This document shows positions 23,101-59,750 of a stretch of DNA of 64,000 nt, piece by piece. Origin of the DNA: Balanoglossus misakiensis. Lineage: Eukaryota > Animalia > Hemichordata. The notes under the pieces were generated by a model that worked only from the letters and a program-made list of their open reading frames with translations, searched no databases and had not been told where the DNA came from. Positions within the stretch are counted from its first letter, which is position 1. Every line of letters starts with the position of its first letter. The stretch spans positions 5,642,001 through 5,706,000 of the forward strand of contig CM082590.2 in the NCBI GenBank assembly GCA_040954595.2, read 5' to 3'. Made by a program: the position numbers and the translations under genes.

Positions 23101-26100
23101 AGAGCTTAATTAAATTTGCCGGAAATTGTATTTCAATTACATACAACAAAATAACGATAGACAGCCTGGCTTTCTGGTATGCAACACATTTTAATGGAAA
23201 TATTGTTTTAAAATAATGATTTTTGCTGAAATAAAATGGATTTGTGATGCAAACAAAATATGACATTTTTTGGAAAGTAAAGTGAGTTTCAATCTAGGTC
23301 AGCAGGTGGTATAAATATGTTTTGAACTTGAACTTTGAAGCTGTGAAAGCTTTGCAAGATCATGGAGATACAAAATGTACACCACCACAGAGGACTGATG
23401 TTGGAACGAGTAAATAATTTAGGCCCAACCCCTTGGGTGTAATTTGGGGCGCCCTCTATGTAGTGGGCTTTCCTGCCTTCCGGAGAGAAGTTGCTACTTT
23501 TGTAGGGCTTCCGCCATCTTGTAGAGTCACTCGAGCAGTCGCTCGCTAAAAACTTCTCCCGAAATCCGTCTTTCGCTGCTTCGCTGCACTCAGATAGCGA
23601 AACTCTCCCACAGTCCGACAGGCGGACTCCCAACTGCTCTGGCTGCAAGCAAGCAGTAAAAGGGCATCGTGCTCTTGGATTCCAACCAGGCCCAAACTGC
23701 ACAGACGTGCCCAACCACAAGGCGCAGATGGAAGCTCTGCCATTCCCACCCCATCCGTCGTTGTCGAACAGACTGACTCACTCCAGCTCGAAGATCTACA
23801 AGCCAGACAGGCAGAACTGTTACAGGAAAAGCAACTCCTACTGCAGAAACGAGAGCAGCGTGCATTACAGACCCGCTCCAGCATCTCAGAACTAGAACAC
23901 GAACTTGCCGCCCTCCGAGTGCGGGATGCCAACACAAGTCTCATGCAACCGCCTCCACCGATCCCTTTATCGTCGGGCAACGGCTGTCCACCAACACTGG
24001 ACACCCTTCGTCAAAACCCAGTTGACGCACAACTCTCTCACATCGTGAATTCGGCATTTGGCGCCTCCGCATTGCCAACGTCCATCGGACAGTCTACTCG
24101 TGCTGAATGGCCGATCGGCTACATGCCACAAGGTAAGCCAGGAAAGTCCCCTCGTGACTCTCAAGCCCCTAGCTTCACAGACGAATCCAAAGTGAAATGG
24201 CCACATTTGCGCCTACCTCGCGAAAAAGGAGGGAAAGTCCCCAAATTCGACAACTTAACCATCGCACAACTGGTCAGAGGCGAATTAGAAATACTCAACT
24301 CCGTCTACCTGCCCATCTCGTCTGAGGAACGCGCTCCCAGATCACTGCATCTCCAGAACTTAATGAGACTCGCTCATAAGCACGATTGGATAGACGTACT
24401 GAATTTCCACGGTACCATCTTAGAAAAGATACAAAGCGCAGAACTACGTTGGCAAGACTGCTTCGACCGTTATGAAAAAGAACTTCTCTCACCCGACACC
24501 CTGACATCGGTCAAACAGGGCACTGATACCGCCCAGACACAGGCCGCCAAGAAGAGCGACATTTGTAACAAGTACAACTACCAGACATGCGCATGGGGCA
24601 ACAGGTGTTTTAGACGTCACATCTGCCATCGCTGTTTCAAAATTAACAACACAGCCACACCTCACCGCGGCAAAGATTGCCCACTCGCCACCAGCAAGAA
24701 GAATGACACCCCCAAATAGTAATACATCTAATTCGGACTGAACTTCAGTTGTTGGGTTGCATCCCATGTTCACAGAGACTACATTGTGTTCCATCTCTTC
24801 CTCACAGAACATTCCGTACACTTCTGCATCGGAAGAATTTTCTAGCGCTCGGTTACCGTCCAACGCTAACATTCGGGCTCCCTGGTCCCATACACCACGC
24901 CCTTTATGTATCTCAGGCCATACAGCCGCATCCTCCGACATTGTGTCTCACTCAGCAAACGATGACCCACCGTTCTCGTCCACTTCAAACATTGTAACAA
25001 TTCCTCCGATTTCAGCTTCGCCTCTGACATCGCCGTATTTAAACCTTCCGTCGAGCACGTCTCCCTCATCGGAATTTTCTTTAGCCAATATTTGTGTGTT
25101 GCATGCACAAGTCTCTACATCCTGGGTTACCAAACTACCAAGGACTCAAATATCCCGTTCCGACTAAATTAGTGTTGCCTTTATGGAGATCACTGCTGGC
25201 ACATTATGCAGACAATATCATTTGTGACTATCACCATTTCGGCTGGCCTATCGGTTATACCCGTGACACATTACCGGTCTTCGACATCCGTAATCACCCT
25301 TCGGCCTTGATGTTTCCCGACGATGTGGACCACTTCATCAGCACTGAAGTCGCCGCTGGCGCCACAGCCGGACCTTTCACAACCAGCCCATTTCCTCATG
25401 GGTTCGAGGTGTCTCCCTTTCAAACTGTGCCCAAAAAGGACTCTTCACGCCGTCGCGTCGTCATGGACCTCAGCTTTCCAGAACACTTTTCTGTCAATGA
25501 CGGAATCTCTTCAGACTTTTATGATGGATATCACATAAAACTGTCGTACCCATCTTTAGATCATTTCTCACAAATTATCCAGGACAAAGGCCCCGGTTGC
25601 CTGTTATACAAGAGAGACTTACGCCGAGCATATCGGCAAATTTTCATCGACCCACGAGATTACAATCTCCTTGGTTTTTCATGGCATCATTTATTCTTCT
25701 TTGATCTTGTTGTTCCCTTCGGGCTTCGCTCTGCTGCATTAGCCTGCCAACGTACCACAAATGCAGTTATGTATTTATTTAGACAGAATGGTTACGCTGG
25801 CATCAATTATTTAGATGATTTTGGGGGTGCAGAGGCGTCAAACAAAGCCATGGCAGCCTTTGAATCTCTTGGTAGACTTTTATCACAGCTTGGTCTAGAG
25901 GAGGCGCAGGATAAAGCAGTAGCGCCGTCCACTTGCATGGTTTTTCTCGGTATTGAATTCGACACTGTGTCTATGACCATGCGCATTCCAGCACACAAGT
26001 TATCCACCCTACTCACAGAGCTTGATGAGTGGGACACAAAAGTCTCTGTTTCCAAGCGTCAATTTCAGTCTTTGTTAGGCAAGCTTAATTCAGTTGCCAC

Positions 26101-29100
26101 ATGTGTTCGCTCAGGACGAGTGTTTTTCTCCCGTATGTTACAGTTACTTAGACAGCAGTTTAAATCACCTCGCATTTTTCTAGATTCCCAATTCTTCGCC
26201 GACTTAGTTTGCAGAGTTTCCGGTAGTTTTTTTCCCCAAGCGTATGCCATACGCAAGAGGTCAATAAAAATGCGTAAGAAGGTGATTTAAATGCGTACAA
26301 TGTATTCATATCACATCCATTAGCAGACTGTTGCAAAATAACGCAAAACACTTCAAATGGCACACATTGTAACCAAAAAGAATTCGAAACAGAACAAACA
26401 GCTTTTGACGTGATTTTACGTTTACAGACAAATGACGTCGCTTCTCTATGATCAGTGCCTTGCATATGCCGTTTGATGGCCGATTTTTGAAGATCACGAG
26501 AACCACGCGTGAAAGCATTCTTTTTGCCATATTTTTCACAAACCTTACAGAAAAGCACGAGTGTCTTTTTTTCCGCCGCTTTCGTCGACGTCGTGCAGTA
26601 ACCACGGATACTCTCGCATTTTTTTCACTGGTGGGGCATCCCCCACTGACTCTTGGTGTTCCGAATCATCGATTTCAGTGGCTTTCTTTCCATTATCAGT
26701 AGAAGATTTCGACGTAAATTTAAATGAAAATAAAGTTGACTGTTTTGCCGCCCTGTTGATCGATATTACACGTACGCAGGCTCACGTACGTGACGCATGG
26801 CATGATGATTAGAACGCGCGCTAAACGAAAATTGTTACATTTTATCATGGTCAAGCGTCTGCGCAAATGGTTTGGAATGTTGCAATTTTATTCAAAACAT
26901 GTAAGCGTGCACAAGGTGCTGTCTAGTTTGTCGGTCGTTTGATGAGTCTTTTGTTACCTCGAACTTTCAATGGCGAAAACAGAGTCAATTTCATTGCGTA
27001 CGCCAGACGCACTTGTCGGTTCTATATGCGTATAGAAATTTTCCATTGCGTGTATTACGCACATTTTTGCGTAACCGGAAACTCTGAGTTTGGTGGCGTA
27101 CCTTTTTACCATTATACAACAGAGTATCTGTTATCCCAGCTTCTAGATGGAGTACACCAGATGCCGTTTTTTTTCTACTGACGCCTGCCTCTCAGGCTGC
27201 GGGGGCTTTTCTCAAGGACTGTATTTTCACACAGACTTTCCTTTACCTGTTACTAGTCAGGGTTTACATATTAATGCGTTAGAACTTTTAACAGTGCTTG
27301 TTGCGTGTCGTTTGTGGGGCCATCTGTGGAAAGGCCAGCGCATCCAGGTGTTTTGCGATAATATGGCAACAGTCACTGTCATTAATTCAGGTCGCTCACG
27401 AGACCTCCATATGCTTCAATATTTACGAGAGTTATGGCTAGTGTCCGCACTCAATAGTTTTGAACTCAAAGCAGTGCATATTCAGGGTCAGGATAATCGC
27501 CTAGCACATTTCTCAGCATCACAGTTTTGAATTTCATGAGTTAACCAATAGTATGCATGTGATTGAGGTGGCAGTGCCAGTCACATATTTCACTAATTTT
27601 CACTATGACCTGTAAGCTTTCACTGTACATCTTCCCAGCGTCGAGATGTATTCTCAGTTAGGTTTCATTTTCTTATTTCAGGGTCGTCATGGCTTGCCCT
27701 TCACCAGCAAACAACAGCCTTACAAGCTTCTGCATTTGCTACAGGGACAGTCCAAAATTTGAAAAGCCAGTGGAAGGCTTTCTTGTTGTTTTGCCACTTC
27801 TTCGGCCTCAAGCCAACACCGGCATCACCGCATGTTCTTTCCATGTTTCTTACCTTTTTATCTCGTTCAGTCAGTTCAGTGCAGTCACTTAAAAACTACC
27901 TGCATGGTGTTTCTAAGTTGCATTCGTATTTACGCATTGAATGTTCGGCCTTAGAGAGTTTTCAAGTCAAACTGACTTTGAGAGGTCTTCAGCGAGTTCA
28001 TCCCCAGTCATGTACTCAGAAGCTGCCCATCACTCCGCATATCATGTTAGCTTTACATAGTTTGTTAGATTTTTCTAACCCTTTTCATCAAGTTTTTTGG
28101 ACTGCTTGCTTATTGTTTTTTTCACATTTCTCAGGAAGTCCAACCTTACTGTTCCTTCTCGCACGACCTTTGACCCCCAGAAGCACCTGTGTCGGGGGGA
28201 TATACAGTTTAGCGCTTTTGGGCTACACGTTCTCATTCGTTGGTCAAAAACCAATCAGTTCCATGATCGCGTGTGCTCCATCCCAGTTGCGCGGTTACCA
28301 GGCTCAGTGTTATGCCCAATCACGTCTTTCGAACGCATGCGCGACTTGATCCCAGCTCCAGCCGGAGCACCAGCATTTGTCTATCCTTCCCAGGGTACCC
28401 TAGTCCCCCTCACCCACAGCGCATTTGTGTCTTTTCTGCGTTCCGTCTTAGCGCAAGCCGGGTTCAACCCCTTTCTCTACTCAGGCCATAGTTTCCGCAG
28501 GGGCGGCGCTTCTTTCGCTTTCGAAGCAGGGGTTCCTGGGGAACTTATCAAATTGCACGGGGACTGGAAATCATCCGCTTACTTGCGCTACTTACATGTC
28601 AGCCCACAAAAGTGCTGCTCTGTCTCCACCCTTATGCAAGAGCATTTGCGTTCCCACTACAATCAGTCTTGAAGTTTTCACATCTTTTCTCCAATGTGTT
28701 AGGTATCCTTCTAGTAAGTTCCTAGGCAGTTTTGTATTTTACTGGCTAATGGGAACTCCCTGAATGCCCCCCCCCCTGGTTTGGCGGCTTGGAGCTGGTT
28801 TTGTCAAACTCTTTTTCATCTGCATATTAAAGATTTGCCAATTTTCCGCCAACCCTTCAGTGTGTCGCATTCTGTTCCTTCCCATTAGCCCACTAGTTTT
28901 CAAACATTTATACTGTTCAAGTGTTTCAGGTGTATTTGTATGCACCAGCCATTAACCGCTCCAGACGTGTTTTCCTGTACAATTCTTATATAAGTAGAGT
29001 TCCAGAGAGGCAGCCACTAATTCACACTAATGATCAAATTATTGTCAGACTTAAATTTGCTTGCAACACCACTACTACTGGCAACCATGACAGCTGCCCC

Positions 29101-32100
29101 ATCTGTTGACAACCCCTTACAGCTTTTCACTGACGGATCATTAGATTCTATTTCTTTTTTCAGCAAGGAATATATATTCATGATGGATAACGTGGCTACA
29201 TGCGTACTTACAACTTCATGACCACAGTGGAAACTATGGATGATTCTTTTATTGACAGTCAGATCGATATCATGAAACATTTAGGCTGCATTCACAAACA
29301 CCTCTGGAGGGGGGGGGGAGAATTCAATTTATTTTACCGCTAATTTTCATATGCCCCCCTTCCGAACTGCCAATATTTTCAAATCCCCCCCTTCCGAACT
29401 GCCAAAATTTTGAAATCCCCCCCCCCATTTTCTTTCACAGAGCAAAACACATCACCTATCTATCTTGTAAAAAGAAAAACAGCGCTCCCATGAAAAGAAT
29501 TTGAAACTGATGTTTCCCCTCGTCAGTGGGTATTAAAACTGAACATTGTTTTTATTTTTTAAGTACATACATTTGTATTCTGTGTTGGGAGACATTGTAA
29601 ACCGAGAATTGAAGGGGTGGGTTTGGGAGGGGGTGTCCCCCTCCCACGTAAGAAAATTTTCTAAAATACAGAGCTCAAAGCTGCATTTTAATGAACCCGG
29701 CAAAAGCAAATTAACTCAACTACCGGTATGTTGGGGAGGACAAATTTAACCGTCGCCGCTCAAAGTTATCATGGGGTGGGGCAAGTCCCCTGACCTGGGA
29801 CACTAGATAAACCAGTCAATGATTGAAAGGTGTTGATGAATGGAGGGGGTGGGTATTAGAAAATGTTGTAAAATAAAGGGCGCGAAACTGCATTTTTGTG
29901 GACTCAAAATAAATATTTAGTCGTTAAAGTTTTTAAGTCCCCCCCCCTTTCAGTCCCTAAATTATTTCAAATCCCCCCCTTACATACCCTCAATTTTTTC
30001 AAATCCCCCCCCCTCAATTCTCCTGCCCCCCTTCCAGAGGTGTTTGTGAATGCAGCCTTAGTTGTACAGTTAAATTTGATCTTTCTCTTGCTGCTAGGAG
30101 TGTGTGAATATTCATTTCTTGTTGTTAACAAGAAATGAATATTAGATTGAGCGGTTGCCACATTCCAAGTATCCGATTGGTGATGTCATTTTTATTCCAA
30201 CTTTAAACGTCTTCATTCCAGACGGGTTGGACAGCATTGCATGTAGCGTCCTGGGGAGGTCAATTGGATGCTGTCAGGGTGTTGATTAGCCATGGTGCAG
30301 ATGTCAATGCGCAGGATAAGGTACGTGAACTGACTTATTAATTCACAGGGGTTTCACTTAAATATGAAGTAGAGGGCCATAGTTGCAAAGTAGGGGGCCA
30401 ATTATGCTGGGGCCGGGGACATGTTGACCTTTGACCCCCCCCCCCCCCCCCCAATTCATTCTACACACAAACACATACACACAAACTTACTCATTTGAGT
30501 GTTTCAACCTTTTATTACCGCTCTAGTTATGTATCATGTTACAATACAGTCTTCAATCAAATTCAAAATCACTATCTGGGTCTGAGTTCTCTGATAACCC
30601 TAAAGCACTTGACACTTCTGTAACTTCATGTTGTATGGAAACACTTTCCTCCTCAGTCTCAACCTCAATATCAACCTGCACTGAAGCATCAGCATAAATG
30701 GCCCCACCTGGAGCCCCATCAGAGTCACTGTCTACACATGATGATGGTACATGCACCTGTACTTTTGTGCGGTATCTTCTACTTTTGGCTTGTTCCCACT
30801 GTTCTACAGCTGGAGATATTATCTGTTCTGCCTCAGCACTGGCAACTGGGGGACATGCATTATAGATTTTAACATTTCACTTGACAGTCGACTTCTCAAT
30901 CTAGTTTTGACATTCTTCAAAGTGCTTGCACCCCTTTCAGGCCAAGCATTACTCACAGGAACACAGAGTGCAGCTTCAGCTATTTTAGTTATCTCTGGGA
31001 AAAATGGGGTTAAGCTGTCACATCTCACTAACTCAGTCAAGAGCCACTGAGTTGGTGTAACAGTGCCTTTACATTTCTCAACATCAGTAGGCATATTTGC
31101 CTTCATGTAATCTACATAGTAGTATTTAAGTTGTGTAAACTCATTCACTAATTTCTTTTACAGCAACTTCCTCATTTTGGTAAAAGTGATCAGCAAGTAC
31201 TTTGATATGTGCTTCCCCATATGAACTAAAAGTTACATTTTCTTTACTTGGCATACTCAATGGGTCAAAGACAGACAGTGCAGTGAGCACTGGAGATGAC
31301 TCAGCAAACCTACTATCTATATTCTCTATGAGAGCAAACAATGTACTTTCTCATCAGACTTTCAAGATCAAGCTTGCCACTGCCCTGGAAACATAGCTCA
31401 GAAGATATATTTGTGAATGAGTCAATATCAGACACAAACTTATTTATTGGCACATTATCACTGAGAATATGTTTCAGTTTATCTTTAGTTGCTGAAACCA
31501 TGCTTGCAATGAGGGAGAAGTTAACTTGATCTCTTTGAAACACAAGAGACAGCTCTGACCAAATGGACAATACAGACTGCAATATATACAATGTGCCAAC
31601 AAATTTAACCGACTTTATTTTCTTTAGCAGGCCACATGCAAGTGCATCATCTTCAAAGTCATTCAGAGTAAGGAGCAATGCCTCCAAATCCCTCAGAGTT
31701 GCCTCTACAGCTAGATTGAAACTCAACCACCTGGTGTTGCAAGCTTTTTTAAGTCTGTGCATGACAATTTTCTGACTCTTGTCAGAGGTTAACTTTATTT
31801 TTGCAAGCTTTTCTTGCATTTTCAGATATGCTGCTAACCTCTTTGGGGAATTTTCAAAGAACTGCCAAAGCTGCCGAATTATTGTGGACACATCCTTCAC
31901 ATACTTTATGTTTGTATTACTGTCAGTACAAGCCAATGCCAACCTGTGGCAAACACAATGCACACTAATGATCAAATTATTGTCAGACTTAAATTTGCTT
32001 GCAACACCACTTCTACTGGCAACCATGACAGCAGCCCCATCTGTTGACAACTCCTTAAAGCTTTTCACTGACAGATCATTAGATTCTATTTCTTAATTTT

Positions 32101-35100
32101 TCAGCAAGGAATATTTCATTATGGATAACGTGGCTACATGCGTACTTACAACTTCATGACCACAGTACAAACTTTTGATGATTATTTTATTGACAGTCAG
32201 ATGGAAATCATGAAACATTTATTTGTAGAGTTAAATTTGATCTTTCTCTTGCTGCTAGGAGTGTGTGAATATTCATTTCTTGTTGTTAACAAGAAATGAA
32301 TATTAGATTGAGCGGTTGACACATTTCAAGTATCCGATTGGTGATGTCATTTTTATTCCAACTTTAAACGTCTTCATTCCAGGATGGTTGGACAGCATTG
32401 CATTCAGCGTCCAGGGAAGGTGAATTGGATGCTGTCAGGGTGTTGATTAGCCATGGTGCAGATGTCAATGTGAAGACTAAGGTATGTGAACTGACTTATT
32501 AATTCACAGGGGTTTCACTAAAATATGAAGTTCAGGGCCATAGTTGCAAAGTAGGGGGCCAATCATGCGGGGGCCAGGGACATGTTGACCTTTGCCCCCC
32601 CCCCCCCCCCCCCCATTCATTCTACACACAAACACATACACACAAACTCATTTGAGTGTTTCAACCTGTTATTACAGCACTAGTTATGTATCATGTGACA
32701 ATACAGTTTTCAATCAAATTCAAAATCACTATCTGGGTCTGAGTTCTCTGATAACCCTAAAGCACTTGACACTTCTGTAACTTCATGTTGTATGCATGGA
32801 AACACTTTCCTCCTCAGTCTCAACCTCAATATCAACCTGCACTGAAGCATCAGCATAAATGGCCCCATCTGGAGCCCCATCAGAGTCACTGTCTACACAT
32901 GATGATGGTACATGCACCTGTACTTTTGTGCGGTATCTTCTACTTTTGGCTTGTTCCCACTGTTCTACAGCTGGAGATATTATCTGTTCTGCCTCAGCAC
33001 TGGCAACTGGGGGATATGCATTATAGATTCACAGGGCTCGAAATTCGCGGTAGCCCCGCGTCCACAGACTACCAATGTTTGCGATCGGGCTACCAATTTG
33101 ACACCAGTGGTAGCCTGATTGGGCTACCATGCGTGCGACGTATCTTGGACTTGTTACAGTTTATAATGATACAACCAGCAGTGTTTTCTCCAGGATGCGC
33201 GATTCCCCCTCTTTTACACTTGAATCGCCCCTTGTAACAAGTTCAGGGGGCGACAATCGCCCCTTGGTGAGCAGCCCACCCGGCCAGTACATGCGCGTCC
33301 AAGCCTCTGTAGCATGCACCGTCAGTCAAAACACTGGGAAAACGGCTGATATTACTGCGTGCTGGCCTATACATTTTAACTTCCCACCCCCCAAAACTAT
33401 GTTGTAGATGACTTTCACATTCATTCACGTGTAATTTAGCTCCAGGGCTATAGTGTGCAATTGTTGGAACAGCCTATCTGGACACCATCTAAATTTAGAG
33501 CACACACTCTGCACTCAAGTGATGGCTGAACGTAACAATTTTATGCAAATTAAAAGAACTGCGTTCATCTCAGTTTTCCATGACCTTGTTTGGAAGGAAA
33601 GTCATTCAATATGTACAGAGGCTGTCCATTTGAGTAGTGTGCTTAGCCACAGATGGGAAGTGTTGGCAGAAATCTGAAGGAATATACACTACTTCAATTT
33701 ATTTCACTATAATAATGGTTTCAAAATCTATTATTTTGGCAGCTAAAAAAACTGAAACTTTTAAAATCAAACAAGAATTTTTTTACCGGGTATAGTATTA
33801 AAGAAAGACACTATTGTTTTTGCAGTTGCATTTATTTTATTCATTTCACTCTCCTTGCCAGGGGAGCAGTTAATCAGTCACTCTCCTACCACTTGTGAAA
33901 TTAATTTCAGGAGAGTTATTTTCAGCTCTCCAGGCTTTTTTAAATTACATGCCCTGAAAGTTATGCAAGTTGGTGTCTTCCTCTGCAAAACCTACTAATT
34001 TAAAGAAGAAAAAACTGTAACTGTTAATTTGTTGTCAAGTTCACATGTAAAATGTTGTAATTTACTAATGGTTAGGTTAGGTTAGGCAGGTACTGAACGC
34101 AGGCTTGTGAGCCTCTATATTCAGCTCCATATCATTCCATTGTGGAGGTAGTTTTGTCCGATCTGGTTTGCATGATGTAGGGTTCGGAGTAGTTGTATTT
34201 CATTGGCTGTGTTGCCAGAAAAATGTCAAGACGATTCTTGAAGGTGTTCACAGAGTTTGCGGTGACAACTTGGGCTGGTAGGTTGTTCCAGATTGCAGCT
34301 ATCCTATTTGTGAAAAAATTTCTTCTAGTGTTCAGTTTGCAGTGTCCTATGTCAACTTTCAGCGGATGACCTCTGGTGTGTTTGTGCGAACTGAGACGGA
34401 ATAGTCCTTCCGATACTCGGCAGTCATAAACGCCACTCAAGATTTTAAAAGTTTCAATGAGGTCGCCACGTAGTCTTCGATATGAAAGTGATGGCAGATC
34501 AAGTAACTTGAGACGTTCTTCATAAGAAATATTTTTGAGTCCGGGCAGCAGTTTAGTTGCTCTGCGTTGAACGTTCTCAATACAGTCAATATCCTTTGCT
34601 TTATGCGGATTCCACACACAACCGCCATATTCCAGAATAGGGCGAACTAAAGCTATAAATAGTAGCTTGAAAATGTCGTTATTGAGATAGTTAAAAGTTC
34701 TCCTGATGAGTCCAACAATTTTATTGGCTTTGTTCACTTGGGTTTGGATGTGCTTCTCAAAATTTAGGTTACTGTCCACTATGACGCCAATGTCTTTTTC
34801 ATACTTAACAATTTCTAAAGTGGTATTTGTTCCATCTGGACGGCACATATTGTAAGAAGTAGTATTTGTTGACTTATTTTTGCTATGAATTGGTAAAACT
34901 TTGCACTTGTCAGGGTGAAATTTAAGCAGCCAATCGTTGCTCCAATGGGAAAGACGAGATAAGTCACTCTGAATTTGTGATGAGTCAGCAGCTGTCTTGA
35001 TCACATTGTAGATTTTTGTGTCGTCAGCAAATAAATATACATTGGATGCTACACAATCAGGTAGATCGTTAATGAAAATAACAAATAGGATGGGTCCGAG

Positions 35101-38100
35101 TACAGATCCTTGCGGGACACCACTAATAACATGGTGCCACGAGGAAAATTGGCCATTCACACAAACACGTTGACTGCGGTTTCTCAAGAACTCCTGAATC
35201 CAGTTGCAGGTTGTGGGGCTAATACCGTAATGGGTTAACTTGACAAGGAGACGTTTATGAGAAACCTTATCAAATGCCTTCATAAAATCCATATACACAG
35301 CGTTTATTATACCACCATCGTCAAGAATACTGGTCCAGTGATCCAGGACTTTGAGAAGTTGTAATGTAGTTGATCTACCACTTATGAAGCCAAACTGCTT
35401 GTTACTGAATAGATCATGTTTGTCCATATGCGAGACGATTTTCTTTCGAACAAGTTTCTCCATTGTCTTACAAATGATACTGGTCAAGCTGATAGGTCTG
35501 TAATTAGACGGAGATTTCTTGTTTCCCTTCTTGAAGAGCGCTGATATTTGAGCTTCTTTCCAAGCTTTCGGTACAACACCAGAAAAAAAGGATTTGTTGA
35601 AAATAATAGTAAGTGGTAAATCAATAATGTAAGCAAGTGCATTCAAAATTTTGGGATGAACTCCATCAGGGCCAGGAGATTTTGTCACATCAAGATGCAG
35701 AAGGAATTTCCTTACTTCTAACTTTGTAAAAGGACTGTCACTGGAGATGATGTCTTCGTGGTTGCCGTTGAGAACTGGAAAATTGTCAATGCTCTCGTCT
35801 TCAGAGGAGAAAACACTGCTGAAGAAGTTGGCCAGAAATTCTGCTTTCTCTTTATCACTATTTGCAGTGAGCAGCTGCCCATTTTCAGTAACTTGAAGCT
35901 CTGAGATTCCTGATTTTACTTTCCTCTTTGAGTTGACGTAGTGCCAGAAGATTTTACAGTTAGTTTTGGTAGATTCCGCTATACTTTTCTCACGTGCTTT
36001 TCTGTCGTTCTTGACGATGCTCTTCAGTTTATTCCTGGCCTTGCAGTATTCACGGTATTTCACAGGGTCTCTAGACTCCATATATCTTTTCCAAAGCCTA
36101 TAATACTGTTTTTAATATGGAATGAAGGCAGTTAGTAAGTTAACGTTCAAAATTGTCATTCGTGACATTTACTTCGACCAAATCCCCCTTAATTTTGGAC
36201 TAAGGGGGGACATTCCCCCTTCTCTCAACATCCTGGAGAAAACACTGGGTTCAACCGGCCGCGGACTCGTGTGCATTTTGACACGTGTCAATCAACAATA
36301 TAATTGTTCACCATAGCAGTATGTATATTAAAAATTTACCAACGTTCTCAAACAGATATAGACCTGCTACCGTACATGTAGCAGTATACAATGTACATTG
36401 ATTTATTATTGTATTATGTGGACTACCAGCTATTGCTCTTGGGCTACCAACTTTAGAAAATGGTAGCCCACTGAGGCTACCAAGAAAAAAAACGAATTTC
36501 GAGCCCTGTGATTCTAACATTTCACTTGACAGTCGACTTCTCAATCTAGTTTTGACATTCTTCAAAGTGCTTGCACCCCTTTCAGGCCAAGCATTACTCA
36601 CAGGAACACAGAGTGCAGCTTCAGCTATTTTAGTTATCTCTGGGAAAAATGGGGTTAAGCTGTCACATCTCACTAACTCAGTCAAGAGCCACTGAGTTGG
36701 TGTAACAGTGCCTTTACATTCCTCAACATCAGTAGGCATATTTGCCTTCATGTAATCTACATAGTAGTATTTAAGTTGTGTAAACTCATTCACTAATTTC
36801 TTTTACAGCAACTTCCTCATTTTGGTAAAAGTGATCAGCAAGTACTTTGATATGTGCTTCCCCATATGAACTAAAAGTTACATTTTCTTTACTTGGCATA
36901 CTCAATGGGTCAAAGACAGACAGTGCAGTGAGCACTGGAGATGACTCAGCAAACCTACTATCTATATTCTCTATGAGAGCAAACAATGTACTTTCTCATC
37001 AGACTTTCAAGATCAAGCTTGCCGCTGCCCTGGAAACATAGCTCAGAAGATATATTTGTGAATGAGTCAATATCAGACACAAACTTATTTATTGGCACAT
37101 TATCACTGAGAATCTGTTTCAGTTTATCTTTAGTTGCTGAAACCATGCTTGCAATGAGGGAGAAGTTAACTTGATCTCTTTGAAACACAAGAGACAGCTC
37201 TGACAAAATGGACAATACAGACTGCAATATATACAATGTGCCAACAAATTTAACCGACTTTATGTTCTTTAGCAGGCCACATACAAGTGCATCATCTTCA
37301 AAGTCATTCAGAGTAAGGAGCAATGCCTCCAAATCCCTCAGAGTTGCCTCTACAGCTAGATTGAAACTCAACCACCTGGTGTTGCAAGCTTTTTTAAGTC
37401 TGTGCATGACAATTTTCTGACTCTTGTCAGAGGTTAACTTTATTTTTGCAAGCTTTTCTTGCATTTTCAGGTATGCTGCTAACCTCTTTGGGGAATTTTC
37501 AAAGAACTGCCAAAGCTGCCGAATTATTGTGGACACATCCTTCACATACTTTATGTTTGTATTACTGTCAGTACAAGCCAATGCCAACCTGTGGCAAACA
37601 CAATGCACACTAATGATCAAATTATTGTCAGACTTAAATTTGCTTGCAACACCACTTCTACTGGCAACCATGACGGCAGCCCCATCTGTTGACAACCCCT
37701 TACAGCTTTTCACTGACAGATCATTAGATTCTATTTCTTTTTTCAGCAAGGGATATTTCATTATAACGTGGCTACATGCGTACTTACAACTTCATGACCA
37801 CAGTGGAAACTTTTGATGATTATTTTATTGACACTCAGATGGAAATCATGAAACATTTATTTGTAGAGTCAAATTCTTTATCTTGCTGCTAGGAGTGTGT
37901 GAATATTCATTTCTTGTTGTTAACAAGAAATGAATATTAGATTGAGCGGTTGACACATTTCAAGTATCAGATTGGTGATGTCATTTTTATTCCAACTTTA
38001 AACGTCTCCATTCCAGGGTGGTCGGACAGCATTGCATGTAGCGTCCAGCACAGGTAAATTGGATGCTATGAGAGAGTTGATTAGCCATGGTGCAGATGTC

Positions 38101-41100
38101 AATGCGAAGGGTTGGGTACGTGAACTGACTTATTACTTCATCATGGATTACATGGCAACATAAATGAATAATTTTAAAAAATGCCTTTTAAAAAGACTTA
38201 TTACAACACTATATTATTTTCATCCAAAATTACTTTGCATGATCCAAATTCAATGGGAAGAAACAAGCTAACCCCTTAACAAGAAGAGGGAAAATCCAAA
38301 AATTATTACCCGTACTGATTTAGTTTTAATGACCATGATAGCCTTGGGATCCAGCCATAGGAAGGACAGTAGGACACATTGTACTCTAAATTTAACTCTC
38401 TTTACAATTTGGCCAAAGAAGTTGACACAGTTTGTGCCTGAATGAATAAATATGTTCCAGAAATTAAATTTTTATGGATTTTTTTGTGTTTTGTGTTTTC
38501 AAGCCATCGCTGAAATTTTGCTGGCAATCTTTTTTTTTTAATCTTCCAGATCCCTCCCACCCTGAATATCAAATGGTCCACCCTTAACTAAGCTATGGAG
38601 ACTAAAACATCCAATGTCAAAAACTATATCACCAATCAAAGCGTTTTCCTCACTGTTAGAATCAATTGAGATTCTTCACTGTCATACTTGAATCTGTATT
38701 CACTTTAACAGTCGGCAATTTTCATTTTGTGTGTGGAAGGACTGTGGATTATCCTTTCAAATCAGTCAGTATGCCATTATGGTTGTTTTTGCAATATGGC
38801 TGATACTTGTGATATTTTTATGTATTTATCTGTTGGTTTATTTATTGTTTGTTTGCTTGTTTACACTTCACATTACATTTTAATTATTTGTTTGTTTTAT
38901 GAAACCTCACATTACATTTCAAATTCTCTGACATTGTCAGTGTTTTTGTTAATTAAGGGCGGTACCTAGGTAAAATCTACCGGAGTTCCCCAGTCATTTT
39001 ACTGGGTGTATCAATGTAGTTACCGTACTTGCCCGGGTAAGAACCCCTGCGCGGGCAAACGCCCCCCTGTGGTTTTAGGGCCCATTTGAAGATCGAGGTT
39101 ATATCCGGTCTAAAGCCCCCCCCCCCCCCCCCTCCCCTCCCTTGGCCGAATATCCATTAAATTCTTGGAAATTTAATAAAGTGCATGCAAAAAGGCGGAT
39201 TTTCATCCCCATAGAAAATTAAAAAAAACGTCCACGACAGCAAACAATTTCCATATGATGATTTACTTTCGCGCTGATTATCTTACCCACCGCGGCCGAC
39301 TGGCCACGCTGAGTTATATATAGCCGCTCTAGAAAACATGACCTCAGACAGGTCCCTCGGGACCGTGCCTCGAATTCAACGATCACGTAGATGGACGCGC
39401 TGCCGCGTATGAGGTCACCGGGGAGCTTTCCAAAGCGGCCGCGTGGAACTGCTTCAGTCCGTCCTCGACGCGAAACACCCAAAATTGGAAGATCCCGACT
39501 TGGACTCGGAGAATGAACCACTCAAAAATTCCGGTAGGGAAAGGCATGATTGCCACGTTGAAGATAGATGTATTTGCGTCTAAGTATTAAATGCATGGGT
39601 GGGATCGACCATTTACCAGTGTCCCGGTTAAATGGGATGTTTTGTCTGCACCCATGGTGTCCCGATTAAACGGCGGGGACTGTAATATGTTTTCTGTATT
39701 TGATTTATGGGAAAACAACTTTTTATTATTTAATAAAGTACATTGTTTGACCGTGAAATGTTTTGCCATGTTATTTGCTTCATTATTCACCCCTTCCTCG
39801 TGTCCCTAGCCCCTTATTTGCAGAAAAGTGGAGGTGGTGCCCTGGCAAACCCCCCCCCCCCCAGCCCCTGTTTTTTTTCGTTACTTTGGGGGCCCAGCAC
39901 GTGGGGGCAAGTACGGTACATTAGGGGGTTGTAGAAATGTTACCGGGGTTCCCAAGTCCATTACCAATGTTCCCCAATCTTAGCAAAAACACTCATGCTC
40001 CTCCTTCATTACTTACAGTGGGGAGACACCCCTTTGCACTCTGCAGCAAGGAGGGATGTTGGTGAAGGCCGTGTCAGATTGTTATTGGAACACAAAGCTG
40101 ATGTGACCATACAAAACATGGTAAATACCTACCTGGCTTCTGCAGGTTAATTCTATCAGTTTAGAAACATTTATTTGTTTGTTTATTTGTTCGTTTAGGA
40201 AACCTCACAGAACATTTCAAATGTTATGACATTGTTCTCATGCTCCTCCTCCATTACATACAGAAATACTCACCAGAACGGTGTTGGCAAGAAATTACTC
40301 ACAAGGAAACTGCTTCATAATAATGGATGACCACAGACAAGTTCTGTACCTCTGATAATGATACCAGTAACTTAGGTGCTCTATGCGAGTCAAAACACAG
40401 TATTTCACTCAAACAAACACTTTCTGAACATTAATGGTCATCAAAGTCATCTCTATTCTTTTGTCTAAATAAAGATTTCCCATCCATGTACATTTTATGG
40501 TCTTATGCAGATCTTTACAAATTGATCCAAATCAGTTTTTCCCTCAAAACTGTCAAGATGAATAAAGGCACAATCTACTACCCATATTTTCTTTAAATTG
40601 TTCATCGTTATGAGGAAATTTATCATCCTAGTACTGTTGAAAAACTAGAGGTTAATTATCAATTCAGTGTTACAGTTGGTAGTCTGTTTGGTTGCGCTGT
40701 TTATGCATAACTTTTGTTGTTGTACCTCTTACATGATGTTGTCTGTTTTTGTTTCTTGGATAGGATGGCAACACAGCACTTCACATGGCAGCAATGGGCG
40801 GAGAGTTTCGGGGGGATTATGGAAAAGTTGTGAAACTATTGTTGCAATATGGAGCTGATATTGACTGCAAAAATAAGGTATAATCTTCCACTTTTATATT
40901 TTATTCCATGACACTCTAGACCTACACCATGTGTTCTGATCAACTCCCATTTTCTCAAGTAGTTAATCTTCATAATCTTTGAATTTGAAATGCACAATTT
41001 TATCAAAGTCTTGAAATTTCCTGAACACTATTTTAACCAAGCACTCCTAAAACAGTATGAGTTTGCACAATGGTCTTCTTTCCAATTGTGGTTTTTGTGG

Positions 41101-44100
41101 TAAATTTTGTTGAGGATTTGTATCTATTTGCCATTGTCCTTTGAATCAAAAGTACTCCCTCTATCGGGTCAGGTGTTGTACAGGCAGGTGTTGACTCATG
41201 ACGGTCGATGCCAATCCTATCTTTGAGACTTTCTATCTCCACTTTCAGTGATGTGGAGAGTATCAGATAGGGCGATTGTCTGTCGGCCTCCAGCATCTGC
41301 CAACTCCTGTCTGTCACCTAATACAATTGATCATAAGGAGGTGCCATATAATTTGTCATTGTCCGTTGAATCAAAACTACTCCCTCTATCGGGTCAGATG
41401 TTGTACAGGCAGGTGTTGACTCATGACGGTCGATGCCAATCCTATCTTTGAGACTTTCTATCTCCACTTTCAGTGATGTGGAGAGTATCAGATAGGGCGA
41501 TTGTCTGTCGGCCTCCAGCATCTGCCAACTCCTGTCTGTCACCTAATACAATTGATCATAAGGAGGTGCCATATAATTTGTCATTGTCCTTTGAATCAAA
41601 ACTACTCCCTCTATCGGGTCAGATGTTGTACAGGCAGGTGTTGACTCATGACGGTCGATGCCAATCCTATCTTTGAGACTTTCTATCTCCACTTTCAGTG
41701 ATGTGGAGCGTATCAGATAGGGCGATTGTCTGTCGGCCTCCAGCATCTGCCAACTCCTGTCTGTCACCTAATACAATTGATCATAAGGAGGTGCCATATA
41801 ATTTGTCATTGTCCGTTGAATCAAAACTACTCCCTCTATCGGGTCAGATGTTGTACAGGCAGGTGTTGACTCATGACGGTCGATGCCAATCCTATCTTTG
41901 AGACTTTCTATCTCCACTTTCAGTGATGTGGAGCGTATCAGATAGGGCGATTGTCTGTCGGCCTCCAGCATCTGCCAACTCCTGTCTGTCATCTAATACA
42001 ATTGATCATAAGGAGGTGCCATATAATTTGTCATTGTCCTTTGAATCAAAACTACTCCCTCTATCGGGTCAGGTGTTGTACAGGCAGGTGTTGACTCATG
42101 ACGGTCGATGCCAATCCTATCTTTGAGACTTTCTATCTCCACTTTCAGCGATGTGGAGAGTATGAGATAGAGTGATTGTCTGTCAGCCTCCAGCATCTGC
42201 CAACTCCTGTCTGTCATCTAATACAATTGATCATAAGGAGGTGCCATATAATTTGTCATTGTCCTTTGAATCAAAACTACTCCCTCTATCGGGTCAGGTG
42301 TTGTACAGGCAGGTGTTGACTCATGACGGTCGATGCCAATCCTATCTTTGAGACTTTCTATCTCCACTTTCAGCGATGTGGAGAGTATGAGATAGAGTGA
42401 TTGTCTGTCGGCCTCCAGCATCTGCCAACTCCTGTCTGTCATCTAATACAATTGATCATAAGGAGGTGCCATATAATTTGTCATTGTCCTTTGAATCAAA
42501 ACTACTCCCTCTATCGGGTCAGGTGTTGTACAGGCAGGTGTTGACTCATGACGGTCGATGCCAATCCTATCTTTGAGACTTTCTATCTCCACTTTCAGTG
42601 ATGTGGAGAGTATCAGATAGGGCGATTGTCTGTCGGCCTCCAGCATCTGCCAACTGCTGTCTGTCACCTAATACAATTGATCATAAGGAGGTGCCATATA
42701 ATTTGTCATTGTCCTTTGAATCAAAACTACTCCCTCTATAGGGTCAGGTGTTGTACAGGCAGGTGTTGACTCATGACGGTCGATGCCAATCCTATCTTTG
42801 AGACTTTCTATCTCCACTTTCAGTGATGTGGAGCGTATCAGATAGGGCGATTGTCTGTCAGCCTCCAGCATCTGCCAACTCCTGTCTGTCACCTAATACA
42901 ATTGATCATAAGGAGGTGCCATATAATTTGTCATTGTCCTTTGAATCAAAACTACTCCCTCTATCGGGTCAGGTGTTGTACAGGCAGGTGTTGACTCATG
43001 ACGGTCGATGCCAATCCTATCTTTGAGACTTTCTATCTCCACTTTCAGTGATGTGGAGCGTATCAGATAGGGCGATTGTCTGTCGGCCTCCAGCATCTGC
43101 CAACTCCTGTCTGTCACCTAATACAATTGATCATAAGGAGGTGCCATATAATTTGTCATTGTCCTTTGAATCAAAACTACTCCCTCTATCGGGTCAGATG
43201 TTGTACAGACAGGTGTTGACTCATGACGGTCGATGCCAATCCTATCTTTGAGACTTTCTATCTCCACTTTCAGTGATGTGGAGAGTATCAGATAGGGCGA
43301 TTGTCTGTCGGCCTCCAGCATCTGCCAACTCCTGTCTGTCACCTAAAACAATTGATCATAAGGAGGTGCCATATAATTTGTCATTGTCCTTTGAATCAAA
43401 ACTACTCCCTCTATCGGGTCAGATGTTGTACAGACAGGTGTTGACTCATGACGGTCGATGCCAATCCTATCTTTGAGACTTTCTATCTCCACTTTCAGTG
43501 ATGTGGAGCGTATCAGATAGGGCGATTGTCTGTCGGCCTCCAGCATCTGCCAACTCCTGTCTTTCACCTAATACAATTGATCATAAGGAGGTGCCATATA
43601 ATTTGTCATTGTCCTTTGAATCAAAACTACTCCCTCTATCGGGTCAGGTGTTGTACAGGCAGGTGTTGACTCATGACGGTCGATGCCAATCCTATCTTTG
43701 AGACTTTCTATCTCCACTTTCAGTGATGTGGAGAGTATCAGATGGGGCGATTGTCTGTTGGCCTCCAGCATCTGCCAACTCCTGTCTGTCACCTAAAACA
43801 ATTGATCATAAGGAGGTGCCATATAATTTGTCATTGTCCTTTGAATGAAAACTACTCCCTCTATCGGGTCAGGTGTTGTACAGGCAGGTGTTGACTCGTG
43901 ACGGTTGATGCCAATCCTATCTTTGAGACTTTCTATCTCCACTTTCAGTGATGTGGAGAGTATCAGATAGGGCGATTGTCTGTCGGCCTCCAGCATCTGC
44001 CAACTCCTGTCTGTCACCTAAAACAATTGATCATAAGGAGGTGCCATATAATTTGTCATTGTCCTTTGAATGAAAACTACTCCCTCTATCGGGTCAGGTG

Positions 44101-46359
44101 TTGTACAGGCAGGTGTTGACTCATGACGGTTGATGCCAATCCTATCTTTGAGACTTTCTATCTCCACTTTCAGTGATGTGGAGAGTATCAGATAGGGCGA
44201 TTGTCTGTCGGCCTCCAGCATCTGCCAACTCCTGTCTGTCACCTAATACAATTGATCATAAGGAGGTGCCATATAATTTGTCAATGTCCGTTGAATCAAA
44301 ACTACTCCCTCTATCGGGTCAGATGTTGTACAGGCAGGTGTTGACTCATGACGGTCGATGCCAATCCTATCTTTGAGACTTTCTATCTCCACTTTCAGTG
44401 ATGTGGAGAGTATCAGATAGGGCGATTGTCTGTCGGCCTCCAGCATCTGCCAACTCCTGTCTGTCACCTAATTATCTGACAATTCCTAATAAGGATTTTT
44501 CTTATTTGTGTTTTAAATAATTCTGTACTTTTGATACAGTCTGATGGAAAAGAGGAATCAGTGTTAATTTTCTTTAAATGATTGTTGATTTTGTGAAATT
44601 CAGGTTTTATTCACTATTAAACATGTCAGTTGATGTGGTTATTTTTTTCATGAAAAATTTCAAACAAAACTTTAAAATTACATTAGAATTTAATGAATTT
44701 TGAATTATTACTACTTTTATAAATATTAAATCATAATTAATGTTTCAATTCTTTTTGTCCTAAATAAATTAGACTGGAAAGACACCACTTGATGTCGCTG
44801 AAGAGTCTCGGAAGGAGGTGCTGTTGGATTACATTCAGGTGAGTGTACTTTTTATATTATCATGAATTTTAATAATATACAACCTGAAATGTGCTCATTC
44901 TTATTCATCTTGAATCAAAAGTGTCCATTGATTTCAGTGTGATATAAATTACTTAATGTGGTGTCAGTCTTATCTGTTCTCACCAAACCCACAAATAAAA
45001 TTGTATTTTTATGATTTCTTTATTCAACCAGAGACGAAATGAGTTCAAGGACCTGATGGAGGAACAAGGTGTGAAATGTGACACTTTTAAGTTGTTCTTC
45101 GCTGGAGATGGTGGAGTTGGTAAGACTACATTATTGGAGTCACTTCAGAGGGTATGTTGATATTTTTGTTTCATTTGCGTTAAAGTTCTAGTATTAATAT
45201 TACAATTAATTAAGGGTTGCTTGTGTGAAACTTGATGGGCCAGAATGAATTCTTAATAAACCCTTGCTCACTCTGTCCTCAAAATGTCATTTTCTGTGAT
45301 TTGTGAAGCAAGAGATGCCTGTCATGTGATAAATATATAATCCCAATGATATTTTTCTTTGTTTAACGTCATTGTATACTCGTGGTTTTCACGGAGACGT
45401 ACAACTTCTCATCTACGGCTCGAAGTTGCACGACTCCCCGAAAACCACTCATATAGGATGACGTCAAACAAAGAAATATATCGTGGGATTATATGTAATT
45501 TTTTCTTTCACTCCCCCTTATCAAAGATTAAAGAAACAACCCTGGAATCTGAAGAAAGTGAACACATTCCCACACCTGGTATTGATGTCCAAAGTGTTCA
45601 TATTCCTGACGTAGGCAAAGTCAGTGTTTGGGATTTTGCCGGCCAGGCTGAGTATTACGTCACTCATAACATGTTTCTGGGAGCACCCAATGCTGTCTCC
45701 ATATTGGTGTTCAAAGCTACAGACGAGAATGGTAAACTCAACACCTTTGAACGTGTGTTCCCACAGGTAAGAATCTTCACAGGAAAGTTAGACTGCATTG
45801 TTTATCACTTTCCAAGTTTTATCTGTACGAATGGAAAATATTGCTGTTTGAGAAACTTTATTCCATGTGCAACACTATCTCGGTCACCATTCATGGCTTT
45901 TTGAAAGAGTTGCAGATATTTCTATAATTGGTCTCCTGCAGATGTTGTTCAATAATTAAATTATTTCACATTGTTTATCGCATAGCTCCAAATATTACCT
46001 GAATCCTGAGAAATCTCATATTGGATTCAATTCATGATCCCTTGGACTCAAAAATAATACTTTTCACAAATATTCTCATTTGTAGATTTTGTTTTGGTTG
46101 CGGTTTCTGAAAGGAACAACCCACATGGACAGGTATTCATTTGATAAGTCAGGAGAAGGATACGAGAAACCAGTGGTGATATTGGTTGCAAGTCGAGCTG
46201 ATAAGTTGAAGAGAATCGATATGGCTCTAGGTTAGTGTTGTCAGCTTTTTCATATATCAAATAATATCTGTCATTTGTTCAAGTGTGTGTATGTATGTAT
46301 GAATGTATGTATGAATGTATGTATGTATGTATGTATGTATGTATGTATGTATGTATGTA

Positions 46360-46416
<57 letters not shown>

Positions 46417-49430: not shown

Positions 49431-49526
49431 ACAATAACATCATGCATGGGCATAACAATTATTTCTACTGTTATGCAAATTTGCCACCACTGGAGTTTAA
49501 TCTGACCTCGTCTCGATATGCCTATG

Positions 49527-50955
49527 GACACATCACATGGACATGAATGCAAGAATGGACACAGATCATTTATGAAGTCAATGTGAACAACTTTACTTGA
49601 AGTACATTGTAAACAGAATACCAGAGTTGTAATAATTTGTCTGATCACAATATGTCTATAGACACATCACGTACATGGACATGAATGCAAGAATGGACAC
49701 AGATCATTTATGAAGTCAATATGAACAACTTTACTTGAAGTCAGTACATTGTAAACAGAATACCAGAGTTGTTATAATTTGTCTGATCACAATATGTCTA
49801 TAGACACATCACGTACATGGACATGAATGCAAGAATGGACACAGATCATTTATGAAGTCAATGTGAACAACTTTACTTGAAGTCAGTACATTGTAAACAG
49901 AATACCAGAGTTGTAATAATTTGTCTTATCACAAAATGTCTGAATGCAAGAATGGGCACAGATCATTTATGAAGTCAATGTGAACAACTTTACTTGAAGT
50001 CAGTACATTGTAAACAGAATACCAGAGTTGTAATAATTTGTCTGATCACAATATGTCTATAGACACATCACCTACATGGACATGTCAATGCAAGAATGGA
50101 CACAGATCATTTATGAAGTCAATATGAACAACTTTACTTGAAGACAGTACATTGTAAACAGAATACCAGAGTTGTAATAATTTGTCTTATCACAAAATGT
50201 CTGAATGCAAGAATGGGCACAGATCATTTATGAAGTCAATGTGAACAACTTTACTTGAAGTCAGTACATTGTAAACAGAATACCAGAGTTGTAATAATTT
50301 GTCTGATCACAATATGTCTATAGACACATCACCTACATGGACATGAATGCAAGAATGGACACAGATCATTTATGAAGTCAATGTGAACAACTTTACTTGA
50401 AGTCAGTACATTGTAAACAGAATACCAGAGTTGTAATAATTTGTCTGATCACAATATGTCTATAGACACATCACCTACATGGACATGAATGCAAGAATGG
50501 ACACAGATCATTTATGAAGTTAATATGAACAACTTTACTTGAAGACAGTACATTGTAAACAGAATACCAGAGTTGTAATAATTTGTCTTATCACAATATG
50601 TCTATAGACACATCACCTACATGGACATGAATGCAAGAATGGACACAGATCATTTATGAAGTTAATATGAACAACTTTACTTGAAGACAGTACATTGTAA
50701 ACAGAATACCAGAGTTGTAATAATTTGTCTTATCACAATATGTCTATAGACACATCACCTACATGGACATGAATGCAAGAATGGACACAGATCATTTATG
50801 AAGTTAATATGAACAACTTTACTTGAAGACAGTACATTGTAAACAGAATACCAGAGTTGTAATAATTTGTCTTATCACAATATGTCTATAGACACATCAC
50901 GTACATGGACATGAATGCAAAAATGGACACATCATTTAAAAAGTCAATGTGAATA
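49527..50955. repeat. 142-bp tandem repeat, ~10.5 copies (some ~118-bp variants), just 3' of the ROCO stop
   Basis: GACACATCAC.TACATGGACATGAATGCAAG... at 49527, 49661, 49803, 50062, 50323, 50465, 50607, 50749 and 50891. Confidence 0.95.
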
Positions 50956-50961
50956 ACTTAA

Positions 50962-51302
50962 AGTGCCTAGCTCGTCTCACACGCATGCGCGTAACTTCCC
51001 TTCGCGACAGTTTTCCCTGTGCATAGCCAGACAATGTTCAGCAAATTTTCCGTTCGATGCATTCAAATAGTGGACTGCCTTCGCTTCCTTCCATATTTCA
51101 CGCGCACCGTATAAGTAGATTCTGGTTTTGTCCCTCCTTTTCACCCAAGCTGGTGTCTTTTCCCGATCTCCGACACAGATTATGGTCGCCGCCATCTTGT
51201 CTGTTGTTAGGACAGAGCACTGCCTTATAGGATTGACTGTTCACTAAACGTCTGTAACCAGCGGCTACAGCTGGAACATGCGTGTGAGACGAGCTAGGCG
51301 CT
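50962..51302. mobile_element. Kolobok-like MITE
   Basis: 26-bp TIR AG(T/C)GCCTAGCTCGTCTCACACGCATG with TTAA on both sides. Confidence 0.8.

Positions 51303-58266: not shown

Positions 58267-58297
<31 letters not shown>

Positions 58298-59719: not shown

Positions 59720-59750
<31 letters not shown>

Follow-up and report, generated by a model that had tools for sequence, protein, structure and literature searches.

Binding-face diversification among duplicated single-repeat ankyrin exons of a ROCO gene in the acorn worm Balanoglossus misakiensis

Gene structure and domain architecture

A ROCO gene with three closely related ankyrin exons is located in a window of 64,000 nucleotides from the hemichordate Balanoglossus misakiensis (GenBank assembly GCA_040954595.2, contig CM082590.2, positions 5,642,001 to 5,706,000 of the forward strand; all coordinates below count from the first nucleotide of this window). 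An earlier reading of the bare sequence, here called the original prediction, had proposed that the three exons diversify the specificity of a cytosolic sensor. We modelled the gene on the forward strand with 13 exons (22912..49430), which are joined by canonical splice sites and yield 960 codons without internal stops. The model starts at the N-terminal ankyrin repeat (N-cap), which is followed by the variable ankyrin exons E1 to E3, two single-copy repeats (A4 and A5), a half repeat, the ROC and COR domains and a death fold (Table 1). The first coding exon lies outside this model, with two candidate Met-Glu donors at 20543 and 20901. From the N-cap to A5, each of the six ankyrin exons is in phase 0 and contains one repeat, and no further, spare or inverted ankyrin exons were found beyond these six full repeats and the half repeat by tblastn and a motif scan of both strands of the window. 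The A4 acceptor region is nearly repeated over 27 nt (2 mismatches) at a distance of 244 nt downstream (40237-40263). The sequence behind this copy is not ankyrin and soon runs into a stop, so that the copy is possibly what remains of an unsuccessful A4 duplication.

The ROC GTPase domain is present with its G-box motifs and scores above the Pfam cut-off. It is directly followed by COR, and the predicted model of the last exon matches the Roco COR structure 3dpt (E = 1e-9). The predicted C-terminal model was aligned by VIA-align to the death domain of MyD88 with Z = 12.0 and a root-mean-square deviation of 3.4 over 100 aligned residues, and the top 13 rows of this comparison were all death domains. 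The Foldseek matches stayed below significance (best E = 2), although their top 8 rows were death domains as well. Judged from the predicted structure, the C-terminus is a death fold. By sequence matches and modelled domains, the gene is a member of the ROCO family with the order Ank-ROC-COR-Death, and the ROCO context claimed in the original prediction was borne out, with all three modules following downstream in frame. The ROC stretch from the P-loop to switch I (45151-45527) is about 10 residues shorter than in the relatives, and a small exon may be absent from the model there. Ahead of the final two helices of the death domain, about 55 residues rich in Ser, Thr and Lys are inserted and modelled with low confidence (49100-49330, forward strand), and the relatives have variable insertions at the same place.

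No kinase exon was seen on the forward strand upstream of the N-cap, using a tblastn search that is insensitive enough to have also missed the CDK exon of the window. A kinase in this gene is unlikely because in P0254 and P0255, two close relatives from Ptychodera, about 10 residues precede the N-cap and no kinase is present. The only match to NB-ARC was a P-loop match below the Pfam cut-off, and the switch is ROC-COR, not a NACHT or NB-ARC ATPase. The protein may work like an NLR, yet it is not an NLR.

Table 1. Features of the ROCO gene and its cassette array (window coordinates)
Feature	Position	Strand	Remarks
N-cap ankyrin exon	22912..23010	+	99 nt, phase 0; weak Pfam Ank_4; 54% identity to Ptychodera P0254 residues 11-38
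Variable ankyrin exon E1	30222..30320	+	Pfam Ank above cut-off
Variable ankyrin exon E2	32383..32481	+	Pfam Ank above cut-off
Variable ankyrin exon E3	38017..38115	+	Pfam Ank above cut-off
Single-copy ankyrin exon A4	40019..40120	+	102 nt, phase 0; repeat type ~16-fold expanded in Ptychodera P0254
Single-copy ankyrin exon A5	40764..40877	+	114 nt, phase 0
C-cap half-repeat and linker exon	44773..44838	+	66 nt
ROC exon 1	45032..45151	+	P-loop GDGGVGKT
ROC exon 2	45527..45766	+	switch motifs TPGIDV, WDFAGQ; Pfam Roc E = 6.7e-7
ROC exon 3	46086..46230	+	SRAD G4-like motif; phase 1 end
ROC exon 4	46954..47102	+	LNC G5-like motif
COR-A exon	47697..47873	+	alignment to COR-A region of relatives
Last exon: remaining COR, predicted death domain with long low-confidence insertion, stop	48057..49430	+	Pfam COR-B E = 1.4e-8
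Tandem array X-Y-X-Y-X	29009..38140		self-BLAST, alignments; unit ~2161 bp without insertions
MITE-like (miniature inverted-repeat transposable element) insertion splitting X1	29283..30058		33-nt terminal inverted repeats; second, inverted copy at 5801-6606
Insertion private to cassette 2	33030..36509		3.5 kb, terminal inverted repeats; reverse-transcriptase open reading frame 34132-36111 (-) inside
Perfect hairpin before E1	30107..30143		17-bp stem, 3-nt loop
Identical hairpin before E2	32268..32304		17-bp stem
Identical hairpin before E3	37902..37938		17-bp stem

The cassette array

E1 to E3 are embedded in a tandem array in which each X block consists of an intron tail, the acceptor-side intron, the exon and 25 nt behind it. 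Each Y block (~1.6 kb) is mostly an inverted remnant of a hAT transposase (Pfam Dimer_Tnp_hAT) and therefore represents a reasonable neutral reference. The introns separating the variable repeats measure 2-5.5 kb, and the insertions that are private to single copies argue for real, separate cassette copies. In all three cassettes, the same perfect hairpin is located 78-115 nt upstream of the acceptor, and it is absent upstream of the other ankyrin exons. It is the only stem of at least 13 bp in the 64 kb, compared to 1 such stem across 10 shuffles. Docking/selector pairs as in Dscam were rejected, with only the self-complementary hairpin and transposon ends being prominent among the longest 25 of 161 inverted repeats.

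Divergence of exons and introns

Each of the three exons comprises 99 nt in phase 0 between CAG and GT borders. E1 and E2 differ at 12/99 nt, resulting in 8 amino acid changes and no silent-only codon, while E3 differs from either of them at 17/99 nt, with 10 (E1/E3) and 11 (E2/E3) amino acid changes and one silent-only codon each. The encoded repeats are 67-76% identical (8-11 of 33 residues differ per pair), and 12 of the 33 codons vary in their amino acid (codons 1, 3, 8, 11, 12, 14, 18, 20 and 30-33). As many as 17 of the 21 variable sites fall on codon positions 1-2, none of the 10-12 four-fold sites differs in any exon pair, and the codons for TALH, LDA and LISHGADVN are the same throughout. 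Codons 18-20 in helix 2 of E3 contain 4 changes within 8 nt, including the only silent one (codon 19). The original prediction had the positions, borders and phase of the paralogous exons in their duplicated intron cassettes right, and its exon counts and identical framework codons were reproduced. Its list of variable codons was correct but lacked codons 18 and 20 and the silent codon 19 of E3. Likewise, its estimate of about 3 differences in the intron upstream of E1 and E2 comes close to our count of 4/161, but intron divergence is not uniform and ranges by block from 0.7% (8/1079) to 5.9% (16/271) in paired comparisons.

The exons have diverged more than the surrounding introns in every pair. 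For E1/E2, 12/99 exon differences compare to 21/457 in the X-block intron (Fisher p = 0.007), for E1/E3 17/99 to 24/449 (p = 2e-4) and for E2/E3 17/99 to 13/453 (p = 9e-7); on the acceptor side, the introns differ at 4/161, 8/157 and 4/157 positions, respectively. The original prediction had named equal exon and intron divergence in a full alignment as an outcome that would speak against it, whereas our three-way alignment contains 21/99 variable sites in the exon vs. 27/437 in the intron (p = 2e-5). Triallelic sites were observed 4 times in the exon and never in the intron (p = 0.001), and none of 2271 overlapping 99-nt intron windows reached 12 differences, the maximum being 9. The excess is confined to nonsynonymous sites, which exceed the intron in all three pairs (p = 9e-4, 1e-4 and 1e-7), whereas synonymous exon sites do not differ from the intron in any pair. 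Intron divergence amounts to 12/206 immediately downstream of E1 and drops to 11/1392 farther off (p = 6e-6). This drop and the homogenised silent exon sites form a peak of divergence like the one described for cases in which selection opposes gene conversion (PMC3924837).

With three sequences no codon site model is possible. Our simulated models do not include conversion. Under neutrality at the intron rates, 21 variable sites were reached in 0 of 20000 runs, and at the worst local intron rate in 0.6%; 12 changed codons with at most one silent codon were obtained at that rate in 3% of the runs. Assuming an older duplication with free surfaces, about 5 silent-only codons are predicted vs. 1 seen (at most one in ~2% of runs), and the split between binding side and back side of the fold (see below) is reproduced in ~0.1% of runs. 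If only the binding face is left free, about 7 silent-only codons are predicted, with at most one in 0.04-0.2% of runs (p ~0.001). Within this scope, the simulations reject neutral and relaxed-constraint models.

Position of the changes on the ankyrin fold

According to alignments with designed ankyrin repeat proteins (DARPins) in the PDB, codons 33, 1, 3, 8, 11, 12 and 31 correspond to DARPin positions 2, 3, 5, 10, 13, 14 and 33. This register fits the mapping of codons 1, 3, 11, 12, 31 and 33 in the original prediction and adds codon 8. Positions 2, 3, 5, 10, 13 and 14 are described as randomised on one exposed DARPin face, and positions 26 and 33 are implied as varied in earlier libraries (PMC3308923). 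All seven library-randomised positions vary in E1 to E3 (7/7, p = 2e-4, or 7/8 if position 26 is added). Because binding positions are loose in any ankyrin, we limited the comparison to generically free positions, defined from the old repeats of 42 control proteins which are rich in NompC orthologues and replaced a smaller generic-ankyrin set (5 usable of 14, 4 of them NompC-type). On the binding side (turn and helix 1), 10/11 free positions vary vs. 2/9 on the back side (helix 2; p = 0.003), and with a stricter cut-off the values are 8/8 vs. 1/8. A random spread of the variable sites over the fold had been the second outcome named as speaking against the original prediction. Binding-face diversification among the duplicated ankyrin exons is real and statistically supported.

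Related genes

The closest relatives are RefSeq models annotated as 'DAPK1-like' from Ptychodera, Glandiceps and Saccoglossus, followed by those of echinoderms and amphioxus. Identities to the full-length models are 33-40% across most of the protein, and the last exon shows 51% identity to Ptychodera P0105. The number of ankyrin repeats in these relatives ranges from a few to over 20, and their C-terminal modules are of the Death, CARD, caspase or GT4-conflict type, which suggests effector swapping. A GT4-conflict glycosyltransferase or a caspase replaces or follows the death fold in P0123, P0020, P0019 and P0124 of amphioxus and P0257 of a sea star. In a tree of single repeats, E1 to E3 cluster (support 0.60) and adjoin the one repeat of Ptychodera P0255 that corresponds to them (0.95 with the N-cap), A4 nests in a 16-repeat expansion of P0254, and the repeats of Glandiceps and amphioxus form their own groups. 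Because the repeats group by gene, we conclude that different exons were amplified independently.

Young repeat pairs of the relatives were compared at the protein level, which does not demonstrate selection there. The most variable codons are 8, 3, 12, 11, 14, 32 and 1 in Glandiceps P0001, and 1, 12, 3, 8, 33 and 11 in seven amphioxus proteins. The front changes more than the back in 8 of 9 scored relatives. These nine are the ones with young repeat pairs among 17 which passed a P-loop pattern filter; 4 isoform entries were skipped, and the filter dropped the true members P0254, P0255, P0007, P0012, P0013 and P0017. In three RefSeq isoform pairs of relatives inspected, the differences are located outside the ankyrin array. 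The Ptychodera isoforms P0254/P0109 and P0255/P0110 differ by lost ROC segments (among them the P-loop in P0110) and not by ankyrin repeats.

Genomic surroundings

The intron between A5 and the C-cap exon contains about 15 copies of a 225-nt unit with 97-99% identity (41126-44575). We considered this array as a coding cassette and rejected it, since it is intronic and has no ankyrin match. A DIRS-like retroelement with an RVT_1 open reading frame (25085-26290) occupies ~23290-28990 in the first ankyrin intron. Its continuity is broken near 26200-27130, where sequence with a C17orf113-type zinc finger has been inserted. The second open reading frame of the retroelement has no Pfam match, and we take it to be tyrosine-recombinase-like from its motifs. 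Upstream of the ROCO gene, Transposase_21 (CACTA-type) open reading frames are present at 14915-18365 (forward strand). Divergently to the ROCO gene, 2794-3069 (reverse strand) contains the first exon of a kinase gene (Pfam Pkinase), presumably of the CDK4/6-like subfamily, with 177-nt tandem repeats in its intron (~1400-2400). The region downstream of the ROCO gene is dense in satellites with units of 142, ~80 and ~182 nt (49459-50988, 53400-56250 and 56900-64000).

Explanations for the exon differences

We consider it probable that the ankyrin exon was copied in tandem, that conversion keeps introns and framework alike while diversifying selection separates the groove residues, and that the product is a cytosolic sensor diversified in the germline. 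Directly observed are the gene structure with its open frame, the exon-centred peak of divergence, the binding-face skew, the independent expansions in relatives and, in the predicted model, the C-terminal death fold. A duplication junction would have created the arrangement X-Y-X, an unequal crossover would then have added the third cassette copy, and the phase-0 exons may allow whole repeats to be won or lost in frame. Gene conversion likely homogenises the introns and framework codons, and diversifying selection likely drives the predicted binding-groove residues apart. From the architecture and the relatives, we infer a role as cytosolic sensor: a ligand on the concave ankyrin face is predicted to alter the nucleotide or dimer state of ROC-COR, and the changed state would make the death domain accessible to an adaptor or caspase. 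This would be an NLR-like logic with a GTPase substituting for the STAND ATPase, and selection is likely exerted by a microbial or viral molecule or by a non-self cue. For an immune role by itself, operating without any active shuffling mechanism, we see the balance tipped only slightly in favour. As for the original prediction, exon duplication with diversifying selection is upheld by the exon/intron tests, the triallelic sites, the front/back skew and the simulations. Exon-limited conversion as the diversifying force is disfavoured, as the exon-centred peak suggests that conversion mainly homogenises the introns and framework. Targeted mutation is unsupported because inspection of the 21 variable sites revealed no base or context bias of the type left by AID or diversity-generating retroelements (DGRs), and the window contains no template copy from which the exons could be diversified.

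Several points weigh against the explanation by conversion and selection. The evidence comes from three exons of one assembly, and the exon-only ratios of nonsynonymous to synonymous change (dN/dS) of 7.8, 2.1 and 3.6 reach nominal significance in only 1/3 pairs (p = 0.03, with 0.5 silent change rounded to 0, 0.18 and 0.13). The intron rates are uneven, and the worst local rate gives 12 changed codons in 9% of the simulations. The peak of divergence is asymmetric, with the acceptor-side intron at ~2.5% for E1/E2 and E2/E3. The boundary between front and back was set with the data already in view, and codons 18-20 of E3 change outside the binding face. Of the scored relatives, 4/9 are close amphioxus paralogues with 1-3 pairs each, and non-ROCO proteins with young repeat pairs, mostly NACHT-ankyrin types, also changed at the front at least as much as at the back (9/9, mostly with smaller margins).

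Some of these points would be accommodated by a history without positive selection, in which an old exon duplication with a relaxed binding face was followed by conversion that homogenised the introns only. The patchy intron divergence of 0.7-5.9% by block (up to 9/99 locally), the weak exon-only dN/dS and the correlation of the variable positions with generic ankyrin variability (rho 0.35, from the small 5-protein control) fit such a history. We nevertheless regard it as very improbable, as the silent exon sites are as homogeneous as the intron, the back face hardly varies here even at positions which are free in other ankyrins, and both relaxed variants failed in the simulations without conversion. 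In a rather unlikely but better alternative, diverged paralogous ankyrin exons elsewhere in the genome donated the variant codons through short tracts of conversion, with selection only sorting them. This is suggested by 3-5 multi-nucleotide codon changes per pair, by fewer affected codons than under random placement (p ~0.01-0.07), by the multi-copy state of the family in hemichordates and by the cluster in E3 codons 18-20, which may be one imported tract; intergenic repeat exchange has been reported in fungal NWD genes (PMC13449251). Diverged donors should, however, carry silent changes, which are missing at all four-fold sites, no donor is present within the window, and retention mainly at binding codons would still require selection.

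It was also considered whether the hairpins actively diversify the protein, either by pairing between cassettes in the pre-mRNA and causing exon skipping or by forming cruciforms that promote recombination, possibly somatically. The three copies share the stem without a single change and equally far from the acceptor, it has no equal in the window, the duplex between copies is predicted at -42.3 vs. -16.9 kcal/mol for a single hairpin, and all ankyrin exons from the N-cap to A5 share phase 0. Yet the hairpin may be a passive relic, since 37 nt without a difference are nothing unusual at 2.5-5% divergence, and it does not precede the other ankyrin exons. Furthermore, three exons allow at most 8 skip forms, the variable sites carry no mutational signature, and spare or inverted exon copies as in Ectocarpus are lacking. 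We hold such a mechanism to be distinctly improbable, and it would supplement rather than replace the explanation by conversion and selection. The farther-reaching proposal that Ank-ROC-COR-Death proteins without a kinase represent a class of cytosolic immune receptors in animals that has yet to be described, as GTPase counterparts of NLRs, with hairpin-driven cassette recombination or skipping in this gene providing a DARPin-like repertoire per animal, also seems improbable, if marginally less so. Lastly, an assembly artefact that strung alleles of one exon in tandem is hardly credible: the nested insertions differ from copy to copy, unique sequence flanks the array, two junctions lie inside it, and the excess of exon over intron differences would need selection even if the copies were alleles.

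Significance and comparison with known systems

The many 'DAPK1-like' genes of acorn worms, amphioxus and echinoderms appear to be a fast-evolving family of sensor-switch-effector proteins rather than kinases. The ankyrin exons that were amplified differ between its lineages, similar positions of the groove are variable, and the proteins terminate in different death-fold or enzyme modules. For the relatives of LRRK2 and DAPK1, it is an open question what is sensed by ROC-COR proteins and in which way the switch is governed by the sensor, and a natural gene of small size, whose 33-residue exons are swappable and whose variable positions are defined, would make this question testable. The accessible portion of a review on ROC proteins lists LRRK, DAPK1 and MFHAS1 for animals plus an expanded set in Trichoplax, without using the word 'ankyrin' (PMC4104024). 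A literature search, with subscription journals and supplements outside its range, found no paper on diversifying ankyrin exons in kinase-less animal ROCO genes. The regime itself is already published for the ankyrin repeats of fungal NLRs and the LRR exons of brown-algal ROCO genes; the gene described here would bring it to animals.

In brown-algal LRR-ROCO genes, one repeat per exon and diversifying selection on the sensor have been described (PMC3341825; PMC11378527). As reported there, they share ROC-COR, the one-repeat-per-exon sensor and concave-face selection with the acorn worm gene, and an immune role has been proposed for them. They differ by using LRR exons of 72 nt in phase 2 instead of ankyrin exons of 99 nt in phase 0, whereas our case is an animal gene with a predicted C-terminal death domain, only three young copies and no spare intronic or inverted exons in this window. 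In the ankyrin repeats of fungal NLRs, concerted evolution goes along with positive selection acting on the concave face (PMC4986451), and repeats of high internal conservation (HiC) are said to occur in animal NLRs as well (PMC13449251). The near-identical repeats, the concerted evolution and the positive selection on the inner helix/beta-hairpin face resemble our observations. The fungal proteins are described with a STAND ATPase and C-terminal repeats, while here a ROC GTPase follows N-terminal repeats with 2-5.5 kb introns between them. The identity among E1 to E3 stays below the HiC threshold of at least 85% across a minimum of 100 amino acids (PMC4986451), whereas the results for their concave face fit the positive selection that characterises HiC repeats.

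The domain order matches the C-terminal part of DAPK1, but in contrast to DAPK1, no kinase was seen in the window gene or the close relatives inspected, and the family has expanded, its members differing in the number of repeats and in their swapped C-terminal effectors. As in DARPins, positions 2, 3, 5, 10, 13, 14 and 33 all vary. Engineered DARPin libraries keep positions 1, 16, 20, 22 and 32 fixed, whereas these vary as well in E1 to E3. Such a match is expected for any ankyrin under binding selection and implies no library-like mechanism. Somatically diversified receptors (variable lymphocyte receptors, immunoglobulins and DGR systems) are unlike this gene, in which inspection revealed no mutator signature and the window no template cassettes. 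Red/green opsins are similar in that introns are homogenised while exon divergence is kept at functional sites (PMC3924837), but they are described as whole-gene duplicates with two fixed functions, whereas the acorn worm gene contains intragenic cassettes with multi-allelic codons.

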